64,000 bases of DNA from Acidobacteriota bacterium (GTDB lineage Bacteria > Acidobacteriota > UBA6911 > RPQK01 > JAJDTT01). This document shows, in pieces, positions 3,063-34,733 of this stretch. Under the pieces are notes generated by a model. That model saw nothing but the letters and a program-made list of their open reading frames with translations, was not told the DNA's origin and made no database searches. The DNA is taken from assembly GCA_965217775.1 (NCBI GenBank), contig CBDCJH010000002.1, forward strand, positions 5,056,001 to 5,120,000. Reading direction: 5' to 3'. Both the position numbers and the translations under genes were made by a program. The first letter of the stretch is position 1. The number at the start of each line of letters is the position of its first letter.

Positions 3063-3754
3063 GTCGCCCGCGGATCTTGCAGAAGGTCCGTTCGGCCTGC
3101 GGCGTCAAGCCGCCCGATCCCCTGCCGGACGGATATCCCGAGGCCCCCAGGTTCCAGGACCCGGTGGGAGTCTTTCGCCGGGAATTGGAGGCGGTCGGAG
3201 GCGTCTTTCTGGATGCCCGGGATCGGAACCCGGCGGAGGCGCTCTCCCAGGTCCTGCAGCAGACGGGCCAGACGGAGGTCTTCTGGGAAGAAGAGAAGAT
3301 ATTCATCAAGCACGGCTTGCCCTACCGGCTGCGCCTGCCCGAGTCGTTCTCCACCCCCAACCTGGTCTTCAGCTACCACTACCAGGGGCGGGTCCGGCTT
3401 CCGATCACACTGGCCGCCCACTCCATCGAACGGGACCGGCTGGCCGCGATTCCCGTCTCCGCCTCGAGTGCCGCGTTCGGCATCGCCGAGACCGGGACCG
3501 TCGTGCAAACCGTAGGGCCGGGCCGGGGACGCCTGCTCAACGTTCTTCCCGAGACCCATATCGTCTTCTTGGCGGAGGGGGACCTCCTCTCGAACCTGGA
3601 TCAGCTCTTCGAACGGGTTCGGCCGGGAGAGGAGGGAAGCGCGCTCACCCTGGTCACGGGTCCGAGCCGGACCGCGGACATCGGGAAGGTGCTGGTCAAG
3701 GGCATGCACGGTCCCAAGAGGTGGTTCGTGATCCTCACGGAGGGAGCCGGATGA
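3059..3754 (+). CDS. lutC: Lactate utilization protein C (LUD domain)
   Basis: GIAETGT and TGPSRTADI...GMHGP motifs; GTGA overlap with lutB. Confidence 0.88.
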   Translation: MSRPRILQKVRSACGVKPPDPLPDGYPEAPRFQDPVGVFRRELEAVGGVFLDARDRNPAEALSQVLQQTGQTEVFWEEEKIFIKHGLPYRLRLPESFSTPNLVFSYHYQGRVRLPITLAAHSIERDRLAAIPVSASSAAFGIAETGTVVQTVGPGRGRLLNVLPETHIVFLAEGDLLSNLDQLFERVRPGEEGSALTLVTGPSRTADIGKVLVKGMHGPKRWFVILTEGAG

Positions 3755-4194
3755 GCCGGAGCGGGCCGGAGCTCGTCGCGGGCCGGCACACCATCGTCAA
3801 GCGGCTGCACTTCTGCTACGGCCACCGGCTGTTGGACTATGACGGCAAGTGCGCCTTCGCCCACGGCCACAATGGAGTCCTGGAGATCGAGCTGTCCAGC
3901 CGCAAGTTGGACCATCGGGGCATGGTCTACGATTTCGGAGACGTGAAGAAAGAGGTGTCTCGCTTCATCGAAGGCCAGTTGGATCACCGGATGCTTCTCC
4001 GGGATGACGATCCCCTCATCGAAGCGTTGCGCGGGGTGGGGGAGAATCCCTACGTGATGAAGTCGAACCCCACTGCCGAGAACATCGCCAAGCTCATCTT
4101 CCACGAAGCCCGGGCTCGACGCCTTCCGGTGAGGGCGGTGCGGCTCTGGGAAACGCATGACGCCTTCGCCGAGTACCGTGCGGATGACGACTGA
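3751..4194 (+). CDS. queD: 6-carboxy-5,6,7,8-tetrahydropterin synthase
   Basis: FCYGHRL, CxxxHGHN, DFGDVK, LDH, PTAENIA and VRLWET; ATG at 3751 overlaps the lutC stop. Confidence 0.88.
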   Translation: MSRSGPELVAGRHTIVKRLHFCYGHRLLDYDGKCAFAHGHNGVLEIELSSRKLDHRGMVYDFGDVKKEVSRFIEGQLDHRMLLRDDDPLIEALRGVGENPYVMKSNPTAENIAKLIFHEARARRLPVRAVRLWETHDAFAEYRADDD

Positions 4195-4852
4195 TCGCAC
4201 GGCTGTCCTGGTGAGCGGTGGACTCGACAGTTGCGTGATGCTGGTCTCGCTGACCCGGTCGGCCCGCCGGGTCACTCCCATCTACGTCAAATGCGGTCTG
4301 GTCTGGGAAGGTGAGGAGCTGGACCGGCTGAATGCTTTCCTGGAAACCGTGGCCCATCCCCGGATCGACCCGGTGCAGGTTCTGGATCTGCCCATGAGCG
4401 ATGTCTACGGTGGGTTATGGCATACCTCCGGCGTGGGGATTCCGGGATTCCACGAGGCGGACGAGCGGTGGGAGATCCCGGGCCGAAACCTGGCCCTCAT
4501 GATCAAGGTAGCGGTGTGGTGCCGCCTCAACTCCGTCGGCGGGATCGCCTTGGGCATTCTGGGCAGCAATCCCTTCTCCGACGCCACACCCGAGTTCTTC
4601 GAGGGTTTGGAGCGGACTCTGAGCCGAGGTCTGGATTTTTCGCTCCGCCTGCTGAGGCCTCTCGCGGGCATGTCCAAGGCCGAAGTGATCCGGTTGGGGC
4701 AGGATCTGCCGCTGGAGCTGACGCTCAGTTGCGCCGAGCCTCGGAAGGGTGTGCACTGCGGCGTCTGCGGGAAATGCAAGGAGCGAATCGACGCCTTCGA
4801 GGAATCAGGGATCCTCGATCCCACGGCCTACGCCGCCCCGCCTCCCGTTTGA
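4184..4852 (+). CDS. queC: 7-cyano-7-deazaguanine synthase (QueC family)
   Basis: SGGLDS PP-loop, IPGRN, and LSC...HCGVCGKC zinc motif; overlaps queD. Confidence 0.85.
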   Translation: MTTDRTAVLVSGGLDSCVMLVSLTRSARRVTPIYVKCGLVWEGEELDRLNAFLETVAHPRIDPVQVLDLPMSDVYGGLWHTSGVGIPGFHEADERWEIPGRNLALMIKVAVWCRLNSVGGIALGILGSNPFSDATPEFFEGLERTLSRGLDFSLRLLRPLAGMSKAEVIRLGQDLPLELTLSCAEPRKGVHCGVCGKCKERIDAFEESGILDPTAYAAPPPV

Positions 4853-4899
4853 AACCGGCGGTTTCCGCAATTCGCTCCGACCGCCGCGTCTTTCGCCAG

Positions 4900-5008
4900 G
4901 AGGCTGTCCGAGAACTCGAAAAATCACGATCCCGAAAAACCTATCTCCTTATAAATCAATAACTTAAATTTGGATATTTGGACGAACATCGCATTCTCGG
5001 ACAGGCTC
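4900..5008. mobile_element. MITE family B (109 bp), AT-rich core with IHF-like site
   Basis: TIRs GAGGCTGTCCGAGAA (4900-4914) / TTCTCGGACAGGCTC (4994-5008); flanks CCAG and CTAG; AATCAATAACTTA at 4954-4966 matches WATCAANNNNTTR. Confidence 0.75.
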
Positions 5009-5800
5009 CTAGAAGCTGCCGCTCCGCCGTTCCCTTGAGGGCATGATCTCCAAGCAGGTGGTCCACCACCCGGTCTGCGTCGTCTCCACGAATTCCTCCG
5101 GCAGCCCTTCGTCACGCATCTCCCGGGCCAGCCGCCGGTGATCGTATCGGAGCGGGCGAAACTCGAATCTGAAGTCGGAGCCGTCCGATTCCAGGAGGGT
5201 GTACCAGACGTTGGGGCGCCCGTCGTTCTCGGGGCGGCCGATGACCCCCACGTTGAAGAAGTGTTTTCGGCCGGGAAGTTCCCGATGCCACTTCAGGCCC
5301 GTATGGGTGCAACAAAGGACGTCCGCCCCGGCGTTGTCAAGAAAGCCGGAGAGCAGATGGTCGGGCGAGGTGCTGTCCCACAGGAACTCGTTGACCTGCC
5401 GGGGAGATCCGTGGCAGAGGCGAACCTTCAGCGGGCCCAGTTCAAAAGCGAGGTTGGAAGGGAGCGTTCCCAGCCAATCCTTGTTTTCCCTGGAGGTGTT
5501 CCGAAACGTGTATTCGTAGCTGATCAGGGCGAAACGGTTGTCGGCGGGGTCGGTGTAGCCGCAGCCGCAGTCCTCATTTCCCTGCGCCAGCGAAAGGTCG
5601 TAGTTCCCGGCGATGCTCCGGATCTCGCCGGAGCGCAGTAGCGGAAAGGACCGGTCGGGATGGGGTCCGAATCCCCCCATGTCGCCCAGGCAGAAGATGG
5701 CGTCGACTTGGGATGCCCGGCATTCCCGCACCAGTTCGCCGAGCGCCAGGTAGTTGTTGTAGACCCCTCCAAAAAGAGCGACCCTCCGATAGCTCTGCAT
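5009..5800 (-). CDS. Metallophosphoesterase family protein
   Basis: CLGDMGG, GNYD, HGSP, HTG and NVG calcineurin-like motifs; first motif is atypical (GGVYNN); DCGCGY insert. Confidence 0.85.
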   Translation of the reverse strand: MQSYRRVALFGGVYNNYLALGELVRECRASQVDAIFCLGDMGGFGPHPDRSFPLLRSGEIRSIAGNYDLSLAQGNEDCGCGYTDPADNRFALISYEYTFRNTSRENKDWLGTLPSNLAFELGPLKVRLCHGSPRQVNEFLWDSTSPDHLLSGFLDNAGADVLCCTHTGLKWHRELPGRKHFFNVGVIGRPENDGRPNVWYTLLESDGSDFRFEFRPLRYDHRRLAREMRDEGLPEEFVETTQTGWWTTCLEIMPSRERRSGSF

Positions 5801-25702: not shown

Positions 25703-26033
25703 GGGTCCTCTCAGGAGCCGAGACTATACCAGTCGGGGTCTTGCGTGGCGAGAGACTCGGTGTGGCTGTGTCGGCAGCACGTGATCTGTCCGGTCCAGGA
25801 GGCCATGGGATCAAGTTGGCGATGCGCCTTGCATACTCTTGACTGTGGCGCAAACAAGGCAGGTCGTTTCCTGAGACTGTGTCCGGTTGGCGTGGAAATC
25901 CTTCGGGACGTTGACGAGTACCGGGCAGAGTTCGGTCCGAATAGAATCGATGTCGAATGGAGGTAGCGAAAAATCATGGAGAGTGGCAACATTACCGCAC
26001 CTGCTCCCGAGGCTCAGGGGAAAGACGGGTCAC

Positions 26034-26735
26034 ATGCAAATCGAGCCAGAGATAAGTGGCGTAAGCGTCGTCTTGCTTGGACAGTTCAATCCGGCGATTT
26101 TCACACCTGCTTGGTTCGCGATGCACGCCATTCTACCGAAGAGTGTCGAGGCCAACGCCAAGTTGCAGATTGCCCACGCGCGGGTGACCGCATTTTCCAC
26201 CGACTGGCTTCACCTGGAAGTTACGACCGATCGTTTTCAAGTCGAAACCCAGCAGGCCCCATACATTCGCCTGCGTGACCTCGTCGTGCGCGTGTTCCAA
26301 GAGCATCTGTACCATACGCCCGTCAACGCGTTCGGAATCAACCGTGACGTTCATTTTCGGGTGTCGAGCGTGACTGCAAGAGATCGAATCGGTAGAACTT
26401 TGGCGCCGGTGGAACCATGGGGAGACTGGAGACGTGACCTCGGGTCGGATGGCGAGCATGGTGGGATGACCTCGCTGACGATGTCACAAGTTGATCCCGA
26501 CGGAAGGCCAAAGGGCGGTCGTATCAACGTCACGGTGGAGCCGTCCAATCGGATCGGCCAGGGACGAGCGGGAGTCTATGTTCGGGTCAACGATCATTAC
26601 GCCATCGAGGATTCTGGCCCTGGAGCCTTGGAACGCTTGATGGAGTTGTTCGAGGACGACTTTGAGGCATCACTCAGGCGTAGCGACGACCTCATTGATC
26701 ACATCATGTCCTTGGCAGTGAGCCGGGAGGTTTAG
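26034..26735 (+). CDS. Hypothetical protein (TIGR04255-like, gene 1 of cassette)
   Basis: ATG at 26034; SVVLLGQFNPAIFTPAWF, HTPVNAFGIN and VNDH resemble sporadically distributed TIGR04255-like proteins (from memory, not searched). Confidence 0.7.
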   Translation: MQIEPEISGVSVVLLGQFNPAIFTPAWFAMHAILPKSVEANAKLQIAHARVTAFSTDWLHLEVTTDRFQVETQQAPYIRLRDLVVRVFQEHLYHTPVNAFGINRDVHFRVSSVTARDRIGRTLAPVEPWGDWRRDLGSDGEHGGMTSLTMSQVDPDGRPKGGRINVTVEPSNRIGQGRAGVYVRVNDHYAIEDSGPGALERLMELFEDDFEASLRRSDDLIDHIMSLAVSREV

Positions 26736-26738
26736 TTC

Positions 26739-27344
26739 ATGCCGCAGTCGGAACCATTCACAGCAGCGCAACACATCAATTCAGGTCAACGATCCAGCTC
26801 CAACGAGCGTTTCACCTTGGAGCATCTCGTTCGGAATGTTGACTTGGCCGGCCAGGTGGCGCTGGCGCGCGGAACAGACGCACAGACAACAACTCCACAC
26901 GACCTGAACGCGAGAGCGTCAGTCCTGCCGGTGTCTGCCGGTCGCAGACAGGACGAGGAGGGCCTCTCCTGGATTGTGGACTTCCCGCAAACTGTGCCCC
27001 TGCCACAACCGGCGGCAACTTTCCATGCACTACAAGAGTGGGAGGGATATGTCCTTGAGATCGGAGAAACGGACTTCGTAGCTCGATTGGTTGACTTGAC
27101 GGCGGGCTCAGCGCAAGAAGAGGAAGAAGCGGTCATTCCTCTGGTCGAACTCTCGGACGAAGATTCCGCCAAGATGCGCCCAGGGAGCATTTTCCGCTGG
27201 GTGATCGGTTACGAGCGCACTGTGGCGGGGACCAAGAGACGTGTATCCCAAATCGTGTTTCGCGACCTTCCTGCAATCACCAGGAGGGATTTGAGGGATG
27301 GTGAGACGTGGGCACTTGAAACCATCCGGTCGATAGGTCTGTGA
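26739..27344 (+). CDS. Hypothetical protein (gene 2 of cassette)
   Basis: Starts 3 nt after gene 1; disordered-looking N-terminus; C-terminal beta-rich domain LQEWEGYV...GSIFRWVIGY. Confidence 0.75.
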   Translation: MPQSEPFTAAQHINSGQRSSSNERFTLEHLVRNVDLAGQVALARGTDAQTTTPHDLNARASVLPVSAGRRQDEEGLSWIVDFPQTVPLPQPAATFHALQEWEGYVLEIGETDFVARLVDLTAGSAQEEEEAVIPLVELSDEDSAKMRPGSIFRWVIGYERTVAGTKRRVSQIVFRDLPAITRRDLRDGETWALETIRSIGL

Positions 27345-28426
27345 CGGAGACGGGGAAGTCTCCGGGAAAAAACGATTTCGAGCTGACACTTCTCGGTCCC
27401 GGCTACGGTGAGAGTGTTGTGCTTCATGTCGGCGGTGGCGTCTGGGTCATTGTTGACTCCTGCGTCGATACGGACGGAACACCGCAAGCGCTACGGTATT
27501 TGGAGAGCATCGACGTCGACCCGGCCGAGGCCGTCGAGCTGATCGTGGCGACTCACTGGCACGATGATCATATTCGCGGGATTGCGAAACTCGTCGAAGT
27601 CTGCAACCGGGCAGCCTTTGGTTGCGCAAGCGCGCTGCTTTGCAAAGAATTTCTCAATGTAGTTGGTGCTTTGGAAGGCCGGCCTCCGTCAGGCCGCGGT
27701 TCTGGCCTAAGAGAGATTCACAGCGTGTTTTCGCGGCTTGCGCAAATTGCGTCGCACCCGACACTGGCCATCGCCAACCGCCCCGTTTTTGTTCAGGGCG
27801 GATGTGAAATCCAGACGCTTTCCCCCGACGACGCAACCTTCATCAAATTCTTGAGGAAAATTGGACGTCTGCTGTCTGGAACCGGCAAAGCTCGGATACG
27901 GGTTCCCAGCCTCTCTCCCAACGATGTCGCCGTCGCGCTCTGGGTCAAAGTCGAAGACGTTACAGTGCTGCTCGGTTCAGATCTGGAGAAGCGCGGCTGG
28001 ACAGCAGTTCTCGAGAACGACGCGACCCCGGCGGGAAAGGCGTCGGCGTTCAAGGTTGCGCACCACGGATCGAAAGATGCCCATGAACCCGGCGTGTGGA
28101 AGCAGATGCTGGAGCTCGATCCCTTCGCCGTGCTCGCACCCTGGCGCAGAGGTAACCGAACCCTGCCAATGCAACGTGACGTGAAACGGATTCTCTCACA
28201 TACACCGAATGCCTACGCGACCGCGAGGATCGTTTCATCGACACGAACTCCTGTGAACAGAGCCAGTATGGTCAGAAGGACCATCCGGGAATCCGGTATC
28301 CAGCTTCGGCGGCTAGTCATGTCACCCGGCTTCGTTCGCCTCCGCCGTCCACTCGCTTCGGGCGCTCGCTGGAAGGTTGAGACGTTCGGATCGGCGTGCC
28401 ACCTTGCAGTCTTCGCGAGACAATAG
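27341..28426 (+). CDS. ComEC-like MBL-fold metallo-hydrolase (gene 3 of cassette)
   Basis: GYGES, VDSC, THWHDDH (HxHxDH), GSD and KVAHHGS; no TM or signal peptide; GTGA overlap with gene 2. Confidence 0.88.
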   Translation: MTETGKSPGKNDFELTLLGPGYGESVVLHVGGGVWVIVDSCVDTDGTPQALRYLESIDVDPAEAVELIVATHWHDDHIRGIAKLVEVCNRAAFGCASALLCKEFLNVVGALEGRPPSGRGSGLREIHSVFSRLAQIASHPTLAIANRPVFVQGGCEIQTLSPDDATFIKFLRKIGRLLSGTGKARIRVPSLSPNDVAVALWVKVEDVTVLLGSDLEKRGWTAVLENDATPAGKASAFKVAHHGSKDAHEPGVWKQMLELDPFAVLAPWRRGNRTLPMQRDVKRILSHTPNAYATARIVSSTRTPVNRASMVRRTIRESGIQLRRLVMSPGFVRLRRPLASGARWKVETFGSACHLAVFARQ

Positions 28427-28508
28427 TTCGTTTGCAATTGCTGAAACGGTGCCCACTACTGGCTGTTCATCTCGGCGTTTTGAATGGAATGCGTACAGGA
28501 GCGAAACG

Positions 28509-29087
28509 ATGGACGACAACAACTATATTGAACCGCCGACCGTTCTCCCGGAGATCGAAGAGGACACGCGCCGCCTCGAGTTCAGTATGGGTTCCGATTA
28601 CCAGACGGGCTCCTTGCTGCGGACCCTGGCGGCCTCCAAGCCGGGAGGCCGGTTCCTCGAGTTGGGAACCGGGACCGGGCTGGCGACGGCTTGGATCCTT
28701 GACGGCATGGATCGGGACTCGCGGCTGATCACGGTCGACATCGATCCTGCGTGCCTGGACGTGGCGAAACGCCATCTGGGAACGGATGGCCGGGTAGATT
28801 TCCGCCGAGGAGATGGAGCCGATGTCATGAATTCTCTATGTGGGTCGCGATTCGATCTGATCTTCGCCGACGCCTGGGCCGGAAAATTCTGGGACTTCCA
28901 GAAGGCCGTGGACCTTCTGAACAAGGGAGGAATCTACGTCATTGACGACCTGTTGCCGGCTCCGCCCTGGCCTCCCGATCACCCTCCGAAAGTGGACGCA
29001 CTACTGGAACGCGTTCAGAATCATCCGACGTTGACGTCTTGCCGACTCTCTTGGTCCACGGGGCTGGTGGTGGCCGTCAAGGGTTGA
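28509..29087 (+). CDS. Class I SAM-dependent O-methyltransferase
   Basis: LELGTGTG, FDLIFADA and GGIYVIDD. Confidence 0.9.
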   Translation: MDDNNYIEPPTVLPEIEEDTRRLEFSMGSDYQTGSLLRTLAASKPGGRFLELGTGTGLATAWILDGMDRDSRLITVDIDPACLDVAKRHLGTDGRVDFRRGDGADVMNSLCGSRFDLIFADAWAGKFWDFQKAVDLLNKGGIYVIDDLLPAPPWPPDHPPKVDALLERVQNHPTLTSCRLSWSTGLVVAVKG

Positions 29088-29385
29088 GATCGGAGGTCAC
29101 AGAGGGACGCTTCCTGCCACTGACGCCATCGGAACGGCGCTTGCCGGCAAGCATCCTGCCCAGCCGCTCGTCCATTTCTTCCGCTCCGACAATCTCGCCG
29201 GATCGGCGGCGGGACAGGACTTCGTATAACGCCCTGCGATCCAAGTCTTCGACTTCCAAACGCTGGCGCAGGTCTTCGATGCCCTGCTGAATGACCGCGC
29301 TGACACTGGGGTGCCGCCCGGTATCCACCATAGCCTTGGCAAAGGCGTGCTGCTCGTCAGTGAGAGAAATCGAGTGCATGACCAT
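29077..29385 (-). CDS. ParD/CC2985-like ribbon-helix-helix antitoxin (orphan)
   Basis: SISLTDEQHAFAKAMVDTGRHPSVSAVIQQGI; no toxin ORF follows. Confidence 0.8.
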   Translation of the reverse strand: MVMHSISLTDEQHAFAKAMVDTGRHPSVSAVIQQGIEDLRQRLEVEDLDRRALYEVLSRRRSGEIVGAEEMDERLGRMLAGKRRSDGVSGRKRPSVTSDLNP

Positions 29386-29475
29386 CAAGAGGCGCCGTCC
29401 TGGTGCCACGGTAACACTGGGTACTACTGACGTAAATCCGTGACCGTTGAGGAATCCGGGCTGGAACATTGCCGC

Positions 29476-32183: not shown

Positions 32184-34733
32184 TTATTCATGGCGCAACG
32201 CTTCCATGGGTTCCAGCCTGGTGATTCTATAGGCTGGAATCCAGCAAGCCAGCAGCGAGGCCACTACGATCACCAAGGCGGGGACCAGGAAAATCACGGG
32301 ACCGGACGGTTCCAACTCGGCAACGACGTTCCGAAGGATTCGAATCCCCGCCAGCGCCAGACCTGCCCCGATGAAAAGGCCGATAGCGACGACTACCAAG
32401 GCCCTTCTCAATATCAGCCATACTGTGTCGTAGCGTCTTGCGCCCATAGCCAGTCGAACCGAGATTTCTCGTGTGCGGCGAGCGACCGAATGGGAGAGGA
32501 CGCCGTAAAGTCCGACACATACCAGTATCAGCGCCAGAATGGCAAAGGCGGCTAACAGCAGGTTTAGCAACCGCCATTCGCCGATACGCGCCGCGATAGT
32601 CGCGGACAAGGACTGTGGTCCAAAGGTCGGGAGATCGGGGTCCAATTCGCGCACGGTTTGGCGCATGGAGGCCACGGTTGCGGTAATCCCTCCTGGTTGA
32701 GTTCGTGCCATGAGCGTAAAGTTTCCGACATATCCCTGAAGAATTGGGAAGTACACATGGGGAGAAGGGTTTTCACCGGGCATGCGAAAGTGGACCTCTC
32801 CGGCGACTCCGATCACCACCCATTTGTTCGATCCGTGTGAGACCTGCTTCCCTATGGGATCGGCATCGGGCCAGAATCGCTCGGCCAACGTCTGGCTGAC
32901 TATGATGACCGGCCGCGCGTCATGATCGTCTGTCCACTGAAAGTCGCGACCCCGGATCAAGGGAAGTCGAACGGTCTCGAAGTATCCGGGACAGATGGAA
33001 TTGACGTTAGCCATAACCGCATTGTCTTCATCTTTACGGATGGAACTTCGGACGCCGCTACTATCGGCAGGAACGAATTGCGCCAGACTTACGGAATTCA
33101 CTCCTGGAGCCGTCTCCGCGTGTCGTAGGAGTTGTCGCAGGAACAAGATTCCTTTGGTCTCGTTGTAACCCTGGTTGGCCACGTCAACCGATAATGTGAC
33201 CACGTTCGCGGGATCGAAGCCTGGATCCAGCGAAAGTCGATTCGCGAGCGAACGGAGGAACAGTCCCGCCACGACCAGCATTGTCAGCGACAATGCGACT
33301 TGCAGGGTGACCAGGCCATGACGCCAGCGTCCCGAACGTACGCGATTGTTCCACTCTGTCCCCTTCAGTGCCGGGAACAGATCAATTCGGCTGGCACGTA
33401 TCGCTGGAATCAAGCCGAAGAAAACGGCTGTCGCCGACGAGAGAGTCACAGTGAACAACAACATGCGGACATCCAGGAAACCGAGGCTCAGTCGAGAAAT
33501 GCTCAGGTAGCCAGCGGACCCATGTGGCAGCGGAATGGTACCCAGCAGGTCCAAGCACCAGAGGGCCACGAGAGTCGCGGCGACACCGCCGGCCAGAAAG
33601 AGCACGGTCGTCTCGATGAGGAGATAGTGGATCAGACGGTTACGGCTGGTTCCCACGGCCAAGCGGGTCGCCATCTCGAGCCTCCTGCTCCGCGCGCGCG
33701 AGAGGAGGAGGTTGGCGACGTTTGAGCACGCGATCACGAGAACGAATCCCGCGATCGCAGTCAGGAAGATCCAAACGTTCTGGAGCCGGGATCTCAGAGA
33801 CGGACGAACACGAGCAAAATGCCCCGGGGCCAATACGAGATTCTCCTCTTCCCACCTTCGGTTCAGGTGTTGTAGTTCGGATACGGGCCCAGCTAGTGTG
33901 GAGCGGGCGCCGTTCCAACTCATGTCCGGTTTGAGGCGTCCTACCAAGTTCAGCCAGTAGCTACGCGGATGCTCAAACCAATCCGCTGAGTCAAAAAGCC
34001 AACGCTTGGGCACAACCTGTGCTCGCATCATCAAGGGGACCCATACGTCTATTTGTCTCAGGGAAAGACCCTTGAAATGCTCCGGCAGGACTCCCACCAA
34101 GGTGAAGGGGCGGCCATTCAATCTTGCGGTCCTCCCCACCACGTCCGGATTCGATTGAAATTGATCGCGCCAAACCCGAGCGCTGATCATCGCCACCGGG
34201 TGGCGCCCAGGAACCTGCCCCTCCTCCGGAAGGAAGCCTCGACCGACGATGGGTTCAATGCCGAGGACATCCGTGTAGTTGGACGACGCCATTTCGCCCG
34301 CTAGCCGTTCCGTGAACCCATCGGCGCTCAGATGGGGCGTGAACCCGGCATAGGCAACCAGGCCGGAGAAAGCTTGGTTTGCTCGCCGGATTAGAAGATA
34401 TTCAGGGAAAGAAAACCCGCTTCCATACGAATCTTCGCTGGACCCGCGGTAGACAGCCGCGATCCGATGGGGATCTGCAACCGGGAGCGGCCGCAATATG
34501 GCAGCGTCGAACAATGTGTAGACAGCCGTATTCACCCCGATGCCGAGAGCCAGAGTCATGATGGCTACAATCGTGAAACCAGGATTCCTGGTCAGCGTCC
34601 GAAACGAGAGCCTGACGTCTCTGACGGTGTCCTCCAGGTAGAGAAGCAGACTTCGTCCTGGTTCCTTTCCTTGCAAAGGGTGATCTATGGGCGAGGTCGG
34701 TTGTGGTGGTCCATTCATGGCTTGGTCAGCCAA
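32184..34733 (-). CDS. ADOP-type duplicated MacB/FtsX ABC permease
   Basis: ALGIGVNTA, IACSNVANLLL, RRTREISVRLAMGA and EPMEALRHE; start 34733 or 34718. Confidence 0.92.
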   Translation of the reverse strand: MADQAMNGPPQPTSPIDHPLQGKEPGRSLLLYLEDTVRDVRLSFRTLTRNPGFTIVAIMTLALGIGVNTAVYTLFDAAILRPLPVADPHRIAAVYRGSSEDSYGSGFSFPEYLLIRRANQAFSGLVAYAGFTPHLSADGFTERLAGEMASSNYTDVLGIEPIVGRGFLPEEGQVPGRHPVAMISARVWRDQFQSNPDVVGRTARLNGRPFTLVGVLPEHFKGLSLRQIDVWVPLMMRAQVVPKRWLFDSADWFEHPRSYWLNLVGRLKPDMSWNGARSTLAGPVSELQHLNRRWEEENLVLAPGHFARVRPSLRSRLQNVWIFLTAIAGFVLVIACSNVANLLLSRARSRRLEMATRLAVGTSRNRLIHYLLIETTVLFLAGGVAATLVALWCLDLLGTIPLPHGSAGYLSISRLSLGFLDVRMLLFTVTLSSATAVFFGLIPAIRASRIDLFPALKGTEWNNRVRSGRWRHGLVTLQVALSLTMLVVAGLFLRSLANRLSLDPGFDPANVVTLSVDVANQGYNETKGILFLRQLLRHAETAPGVNSVSLAQFVPADSSGVRSSIRKDEDNAVMANVNSICPGYFETVRLPLIRGRDFQWTDDHDARPVIIVSQTLAERFWPDADPIGKQVSHGSNKWVVIGVAGEVHFRMPGENPSPHVYFPILQGYVGNFTLMARTQPGGITATVASMRQTVRELDPDLPTFGPQSLSATIAARIGEWRLLNLLLAAFAILALILVCVGLYGVLSHSVARRTREISVRLAMGARRYDTVWLILRRALVVVAIGLFIGAGLALAGIRILRNVVAELEPSGPVIFLVPALVIVVASLLACWIPAYRITRLEPMEALRHE

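Follow-up and report, generated by a model that had tools for sequence, protein, structure and literature searches.

The locus considered here raises a simple question: what is the function of three short, tightly coupled genes whose products together correspond to no named system? They lie at 26034–28426 of a 64,000-nucleotide (nt) stretch of the genome of an Acidobacteriota bacterium (GenBank assembly GCA_965217775.1, contig CBDCJH010000002.1, positions 5,056,001–5,120,000 of the forward strand), referred to as the window throughout. A first-pass annotation, made from the letters of the window alone, had proposed a tripartite defence or toxin module composed of a sensor or chaperone, an antitoxin and a nuclease. 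Our results suggest that the genes form a horizontally mobile, undescribed immune cassette directed against phages or mobile elements, in which a nuclease is controlled by two partner subunits and no protease, and we lean towards this reading with some reserve. The three genes are as follows.

26034–26735, plus strand: gene 1, 233 amino acids (aa); α/β protein without a named family, in which helices back a large antiparallel sheet
26739–27344, plus strand: gene 2, 201 aa; disordered, hypervariable N-terminus (residues 1 to ~90), then an OB/cold-shock-like barrel with a C-terminal helix (~94–198)
27341–28426, plus strand: gene 3, 361 aa, GTG start; soluble ComEC-type metallo-β-lactamase (MBL)-fold hydrolase, presumed nuclease effector

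Open reading frames (ORFs) and translations agree with the coupling originally described for these co-oriented genes: genes 1 and 2 are separated by 3 nt, and the stop of gene 2 overlaps the GTG start of gene 3 by 4 nt (GTGA). The G+C fraction at third codon positions (GC3) is 0.650, 0.614 and 0.635 for genes 1, 2 and 3, compared with 0.77–0.82 for six upstream genes and the downstream response regulator, in keeping with the earlier remark that the trio is richer in A/T-ending codons than core genes. No transmembrane-like segment was found in any of the three proteins with 19-residue windows, the Kyte–Doolittle maxima being 1.26, 0.75 and 1.43, respectively, where the usual transmembrane level is about 1.6.

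The trio is remarkably constant in its organization. In a scan of one genome per species, 416 relatives were found and the best 80 loci were kept; genes 1, 2 and 3 occur in this order at 78 of the 80, which span at least 10 phyla, and both exceptions are cut by contig ends. The 4-nt overlap of the gene 2 stop with the gene 3 start is near-universal in this set, and the gap between genes 1 and 2 is mostly 3–13 nt. The overlap is also kept in a distant genome (G028) in which the trio is 32–36% identical. Plasmid copies of the trio were further recognized in Adhaeribacter swui (hhalign 99.9% for gene 1 and 98.4% for gene 2) and in Pantoea agglomerans, where the plasmid is conjugative (91.7% and 65%). 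All three profiles match in 17 of 21 IMG/VR loci (E ≤ 0.01), with gene 2 weak in L118, L120, L121 and L126; among the others, L129 holds genes 1 and 3, contig ends truncate L111 and L119, and only gene 3 is present in L130. The three-gene synteny, singled out for checking by the first-pass annotation, therefore extends to plasmid and prophage copies of ~30% identity and, judged from sequence, the three genes are one conserved module. The gene 3 tree requires at least 21 changes of phylum (68 named rows, 10 phyla), and the module therefore moves freely between lineages. Many relatives carry record names that presumably denote sponge-associated or marine metagenome-assembled genomes. At two loci, an insertion of 1.6–1.85 kb separates gene 1 from gene 2 (L056 ~3790–5365 and L078 ~3495–5346).

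Clustering of the flanks of the 80 loci identified four recurrent neighbours, all parts of the Hma system: a DUF499 AAA+ ATPase (HmaC, 2.5e-94), a DUF7680 protein, a DUF1156 N6-methylase (HmaB, 1.3e-75) and a PLD/SNF2 helicase (HmaA, PLD_Helicase and BrxH models). A recent reappraisal treats Hma as one of the 'BREX-related' systems centred on DUF499 (PMC12839542). At least one Hma part lies within 6 kb of the cassette at 33 of the 80 loci, several of which have Hma fragments only, and at 23 of the 80 HmaC or DUF7680 is upstream of the cassette and the HmaB methylase downstream. An NsnA/GmrSD-type gene shares the Hma locus of the cassette in five cases. On the gene 3 tree, at least 12 switches between Hma and non-Hma settings are required, against a mean of 23.4 and a minimum of 16 in 500 shuffles; the Hma association is therefore clustered, yet not a single event. 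According to Payne et al., embedded genes occur in 62.7% of Hma systems, known defences make up 22.8% of those genes, and seven of nine Hma-embedded candidates that were tested protected against phage (bioRxiv 10.1101/2024.01.29.577857). The embedded nucleases named in PMC12839542 are of the HNH, HKD, PD-(D/E)xK, TOPRIM, HEPN, PIN and Schlafen types, with MBL not in that list, and the MBL cassette is absent from the main texts of both that paper and Payne et al. (bioRxiv 10.1101/2024.01.29.577857).

Prophages provide a second recurrent setting. When 119 ORFs flanking the trio at 13 IMG/VR loci were annotated with PHROG, most of these loci proved to have real phage contexts. In two P2-like loci (L120 and L126), the trio lies between the portal gene gpQ and a gpA-type replication nickase, and the gpQ–gpA interval of P2 is a hotspot defined by Rousset et al. 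2022 (PMC9122126). In a lambdoid element (L123/L124), the trio separates antiterminator Q from the lysis genes, and in a lambdoid prophage of Escherichia coli SX45 the genes VR615_RS16965–16975 are placed between Q and the holin, on the strand opposite to the late genes, with products that PGAP names 'hypothetical protein' twice and 'MBL fold metallo-hydrolase'. Among 5426 complete E. coli genomes, 2 carry DNA that is 100% identical to the lambdoid copy. Further prophage copies adjoin CI-type repressor, integrase, anti-repressor or terminase genes, and the Adhaeribacter plasmid copy abuts a SngC/BrxHI-type helicase (5.6e-211). A tblastn search with gene 3 gave no match among GenBank phages at E ≤ 1e-10, the distant copies having been found through PHROG and IMG/VR, and megablast of the P2-like copy gave no match in E. 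coli genomes. One IMG/VR copy (L112 3717–6086) is placed between the large terminase and portal genes, within the packaging module, which is unusual for accessory cargo. A cassette that travels widely and recurs inside known anti-phage systems and in prophage defence hotspots is probably an undescribed bacterial immune module, and a role in defence seems to us rather likelier than its absence.

The presumed effector is the product of gene 3. It matches Pfam Lactamase_B (1.2e-6), and its nearest solved relatives are the MBL domains of ComEC (9ic4_A, 2.1e-10; 30bt_A, 4.1e-9), to which it aligns over residues 11–86 and 192–254. Residues H72, H74, D75, D76, H77, D214, H241, H242 and G243 are invariant in 71 sequences, and distant copies retain an HxHxxDH-type motif in 18 of 19 and HHGS in 19 of 19. 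These invariant motif residues, together with the hydropathy maximum of 1.43, uphold the earlier description of a metal site without the membrane domain of ComEC. Relative to the solved ComEC MBL domain, gene 3 carries ~40 extra aa within residues 87–191 and ~48 extra aa at its C-terminal end (255–361). Its best PADLOC matches are LmuA of Lamassu (3.7e-10), RTasMBL of DRT (3.9e-10) and Avs1a of AVAST (1.6e-3), all of them weak; NCBIfam ComEC models reach 12–14 bits, against cut-offs of 190–969, and phrog_28593 is matched at 4.3e-29. At least 1655 relatives were found at E ≤ 1e-3 among 8000 scored candidates, the top 120 being 57–88% identical.

Gene 2 has no Pfam, NCBIfam or PADLOC match, and comparison of its profile with PDB sequences gave nothing meaningful. 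The predicted local confidence (pLDDT) is below 50 at residues 1–81 and above 90 for most of 94–198, and mean pairwise identity is 0.20 over residues 1–90 versus 0.62 over 91–201. Residues 94–198 form a small barrel; its matches are cold-shock, IF5A/EF-P and further OB-type domains, at Z scores of 5–7.2, which are middling values. The disordered N-terminus and small OB-like domain first noticed in the translation are thus both recovered. Among BFVD structures, one uncharacterized phage protein (E 1.8e-4) and weak SSB matches were found.

For gene 1, no Pfam, NCBIfam, PADLOC or PHROG match was obtained, and nothing meaningful emerged from comparison of its profile with PDB sequences. Its AlphaFold 2 model has a pLDDT of 90.2, with best fold matches to the McsB/arginine-kinase catalytic domain (Z 7.2–8.0), AdoMetDC (Z 6.9) and TBP (Z 6.0). 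We draw no function from these, because the matches are only middling (Foldseek, VIA). Its relatives number 1108 at E ≤ 1e-3, within an unnamed superfamily of 2428 representative clusters at E ≤ 1e-3. One relative (P0245, 438 aa) has the gene 1 domain at residues 1–230, followed by ~208 further residues, and may be a fusion of genes 1 and 2 or a read-through of the 3-nt gap. The label 'TIGR04255-like' previously given to gene 1 is not confirmed: the hidden Markov model (HMM) searches speak against membership of that family, and profile comparison lent the label no support. There is no HMM match for gene 1 at E ≤ 0.1 (model cut-off 30 bits), and none for the 73 family members at E ≤ 10 or for 38 remoter relatives at E ≤ 0.01. 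The model has no match in the cassette carriers G000 (the genome of the window), G001 and G005, yet it matches in 18 of 201 genomes of the phylum. Alignment of the gene 1 profile with 11 TIGR04255 members by hhalign gave a probability of 1.5% (E 0.035), the TIGR04255 alignment being shallow. The sole lead for the label is that the nearest Atlas cluster was named TIGR04255 automatically (score 0.98).

Complex prediction, one of the checks proposed in the first-pass annotation, supports a complex of the three products. In a three-chain co-fold, the gene 2 domain against genes 1 and 3 scored 0.77, the best of three controls scoring 0.24; at least 72% of contacts recur between runs, and the partner has a pLDDT of 77 or more. 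Of 157 solved complexes, 116 attain the co-fold mark, as do 2 of 215 mismatched pairs, a calibration that holds only roughly for three chains and custom alignments, and because of this difference in setup the co-fold supports rather than shows binding. The score falls to 0.24 when gene 3 is swapped out, so gene 3 appears to be the main anchor. In the model, strand 129–134 of gene 2 pairs with residues 319–324 of gene 3; the predicted contacts of gene 3 are at 42–46, 100–142, 178–189 and 305–325, largely in the segments that exceed ComEC, and those of gene 1 are at 4–9, 55–60 and 73–90.

These predictions allow a mechanism to be outlined. In the putative heterotrimer, the OB-like domain of gene 2 would bridge gene 1 to lineage-specific segments of gene 3 (a central stretch, 100–142 and 178–189, and a C-terminal extension, 305–325), and the complex would either keep the gene 3 nuclease inactive or direct it toward its substrate. 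The input surface may be gene 1, the OB domain of gene 2 or its fast-evolving N-terminus, and the cue a nucleic acid or protein of the infection, which would release the putative gene 3 DNase on invader or cell DNA. Control would then be exerted by non-covalent partner subunits, unlike the cleavable gating loops and partner proteases of the MBL pro-nuclease pairs. Rather more tentatively, the cassettes may represent a widespread new defence family in which an OB-fold adaptor and an unclassified α/β subunit keep a ComEC-type MBL DNase within a heterotrimer, and sensing of a ligand or nucleic acid licenses it without proteolysis; in this specific form the proposal is possible, and we do not expect all of its parts to stand. 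The roles of sensor, chaperone and antitoxin that were assigned earlier find no support in the present results; what endures of the original interpretation is a single, uncatalogued module with a defence association.

Several observations weigh against an immune function. The window copy lies outside any defence island, its neighbours being a flavin reductase, an O-methyltransferase and a two-component system, and stand-alone chromosomal copies are found mostly among housekeeping genes: in a scan of 24 of the 47 non-Hma loci, only five have a toxin–antitoxin (TA), transposase, phage-like or defence-like neighbour. Enrichment of stand-alone copies in defence islands is not supported in these 24 loci. 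The fraction of 33 in 80 with Hma parts overstates the number of independent events, since the loci share ancestry and the cassette may travel with entire Hma operons. The genome of the window does possess a complete Hma/BREX-related operon (G000:C2:4089124-4098877; L109 7125–16878, minus strand), ~1 Mb from the window and encoding a DUF499 ATPase of 1014 aa, a DUF7680 protein of 202 aa, a methylase of 978 aa and a helicase of 1060 aa; this operon has no embedded genes, so the cassette and its frequent carrier system are unlinked here. The resemblance of gene 3 to defence MBLs is weak and partial (E ~1e-10) and far under the Avs1a and 6A-MBL cut-offs of NCBIfam, and its substrate might be RNA or something other than a nucleic acid. 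The fold-match scores of genes 1 and 2 are in a range that can reflect common arrangements, the co-fold score is the model's own confidence and no measurement, and we infer defence, toxicity and gene 3 nuclease activity alike. Beside one stand-alone cassette (L029 7282–10689, minus strand), a 1135-aa fusion combines Prok-E2_A, ThiF, Prok-JAB and patatin domains; such ubiquitin-like-conjugation/phospholipase architectures are typical of conflict systems.

The way in which the cassette is inserted and distributed bears on both its immune reading and the alternatives. In three genomes of the same genus, position 25742 of the window (the flavin-reductase upstream region) joins ~28504 (the O-methyltransferase) directly, and alignment across the junction sets the break at ~25763 and ~28495. 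The accessory interval recognized at the outset can thus be defined as an insertion with the following parts.

25763–28495, plus strand: inserted segment of ~2.73 kb carrying the cassette; ends approximate, to about ±10 nt, from the empty-site junction alignment
25763–26033, plus strand: non-coding leader of the insertion, presumed promoter region; no promoter identified
28427–28495, plus strand: 3′ tail of the insertion, missing from empty sites

No terminal inverted repeats or target duplication were seen at the insertion ends. A consensus scan of the leader found no plus-strand sigma-70-like site, the insertion has no Rfam match and no terminator-like site was found in 28427–28495. A whole-genome search showed gene 3 to be single-copy in its own genome. 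Among 40 relatives searched, the cassette is present in three of eight other genomes of the genus (one copy being decayed) and in none of six genomes of the sister genus, and one of 26 more distant genomes has gene 3, as a 40%-identity copy. The decayed cassette (G007; L088, G007:C18:83147-87661) occupies the same site and lacks the equivalents of window positions 26022–27141, comprising gene 1 and most of gene 2, and 27542–27944, the middle of gene 3. In a related Acidobacteriota locus (L002), the cassette is on the opposite side of the flavin reductase, between it and an ABC-transporter gene, and is flanked by a diverged ~135-nt duplicate of the overlapping 3′ ends of these two genes (L002 4430–4564 and 7220–7354). 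The last ~100 nt of the leader (25930–26033) accompany the cassette there. Either the cassette or the flavin reductase segment moved in this rearrangement.

Two further features of the surroundings belong to the window rather than to the insertion. The cassette had been described as lying next to an orphan antitoxin, and a weak ParD/RHH-like ORF is indeed nearby (29077–29469, minus strand; TIGR02606, 1.9e-6, below both curated cut-offs), without a ParE-type partner and overlapping the 3′ end of the O-methyltransferase gene by 11 nt. This ORF lies outside the insertion, belongs to the genus backbone and is unrelated to the cassette; it is largely missing in G002 (L089). Further downstream, an FtsX/MacB-type permease gene of 849 aa (32184–34733, minus strand) has a GC3 of 0.649, similar to the cassette and well below its neighbours, and may also be a recent acquisition.

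The alternative that survives best is a tripartite TA system, in which gene 3 would be the toxin, gene 2 a labile antitoxin with its disordered N-terminus as a degradation tag and gene 1 a stabilizer or regulator, with no dedicated anti-phage role. We regard this as unlikely, even though much of the architecture suits it: the genes are tightly coupled through a stop/start overlap, the N-terminus of gene 2 is disordered and fast-evolving, and gene 2 is predicted to contact gene 3 in the co-fold. Carriage by plasmids and prophages and single insertions among housekeeping genes also speak for such a system, but the repeated placement in Hma operons and prophage hotspots is better explained by immunity, and the searches with genes 1 and 2 revealed neither a TA family nor a DNA-binding antitoxin fold or SecB-like chaperone. 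The decay in G007 says little on addiction, because gene 1 and most of gene 2 are lost and gene 3 is internally deleted. It should be borne in mind that TA and abortive-infection defence are not mutually exclusive.

A second alternative, that the three products form a complex that processes or repairs nucleic acids for the element carrying them, as in DNA end processing, recombination or RNA maturation, appears less probable again. Housekeeping nucleases that combine MBL and OB domains exist, and this pairing speaks for such a complex, as do some of the neighbours, namely replication and recombination genes close to two prophage copies (DnaB-like in L116, an exonuclease in L115) and a DNA ligase beside one stand-alone cassette (L024). 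Patchy presence at the level of strains, with decay, and transfer across phyla are not what would be expected of it, nor are the opposite-strand moron placement in the lambdoid prophage and the embedding in Hma at a position used by other defence genes. Finally, that the cassette is a selfish homing-type element, whose nuclease spreads it into preferred sites such as the DUF7680–HmaB junction of Hma, is highly improbable: MBL nucleases are not known to act as homing enzymes, and the clean 2.73-kb insertion without a recombinase, the repeated occupation of the same Hma junction and the other position relative to the flavin reductase in L002 are offset by the highly diverse insertion sites, by the lack of visible terminal repeats or target duplication and by the fact that the Hma junction hosts hundreds of unrelated cassettes (bioRxiv 10.1101/2024.01.29.577857).

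If the immune reading is correct, the cassette would be a single immune module exchanged heavily across phyla, and it would bring to the defence catalogues two protein families that are new to them, with ~1,100 (gene 1) and at least 1,650 (gene 3) clusters at 90% identity. It would represent a second, protease-independent gating of the MBL pro-nuclease class, in which the hypervariable N-terminus of gene 2 could be an arms-race surface. The case also lends independent support to 'guilt by embedding' in Hma/BREX-related operons and prophage hotspots as a route of discovery, and, with a copy of identical architecture in a lambdoid prophage of E. coli, the idea is open to direct testing.

How, then, does the cassette compare with systems already described? 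The first-pass annotation could match it to no named system, and this view is sustained: PADLOC-DB v2.0.0 (2023), Pfam and NCBIfam gave no named system, no PADLOC model recognizes gene 1 or gene 2 in 14 divergent trios (the window, G028, two plasmid and ten prophage copies), and no description of the trio was found in full-text literature searches. With Rst_3HP ('hp + hp + hp', Rousset et al. 2022) it shares three unannotated genes in the P2 gpQ–gpA hotspot. The Rst_3HP proteins, of ~330, 345 and 225 aa, are without HxHxDH or HHGS (Table S2A sequences, read by eye), and identity with Rst_3HP was rejected. With the HEC-01 to HEC-09 and PDC candidates of Payne et al. and the 'backup effectors' of PMC12839542, the cassette shares a niche between the DUF499 ATPase or small DUF gene and the DUF1156 methylase; genes 1 and 2 match no HEC or PDC model, gene 3 reaches only E ~1e-3 to PDC-M48B, and the window copy stands alone rather than embedded in Hma. 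Gene 3 has the MBL domain of ComEC/Rec2 with its HxHxDH and HHGS motifs, but differs from it in being a soluble protein of 361 aa, in which the MBL similarity begins at residue 11, without the membrane competence domain.

The closest parallel is with the MBL pro-nucleases. That MBL-fold nucleases act as anti-phage effectors, as stated at the outset, is documented: Hachiman, AVAST and Canu, the last with three genes, employ ComEC-like MBL nucleases as DNase effectors, made as proenzymes in which insertions block the active site until a partner trypsin-like or caspase protease removes them (PMC12799240). Like those of Hachiman (HamM), AVAST type 1 (Avs1a), Lamassu, DRT and Canu (CanABC), the effector proposed here is a soluble ComEC-like MBL protein encoded by a separate gene beside its partners and acquired repeatedly by unrelated defence loci (PMC12799240), and the three-gene layout recalls Canu. 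It differs from the protease–MBL pairs in that the nuclease gene is last rather than upstream, in that the extra segments of gene 3 are predicted to be bound by gene 2 and are not established as cleavable loops, and in that no trypsin-like or caspase partner was detected: genes 1 and 2 have no protease match in Pfam or NCBIfam, the 14 trios have none to PADLOC protease models and there is none among the structure matches listed. A ComEC-type MBL defence effector would thus be the part already known, and two unclassified partners with no protease the new part, a division that we think holds on balance. ComEC-related MBL nucleases have only just been recognized as a recurrent immune effector, so far solely as protease-activated proenzymes; a cassette that pairs the same class of effector with two partners of no known family, and with no protease, would therefore reveal a further mode of control.

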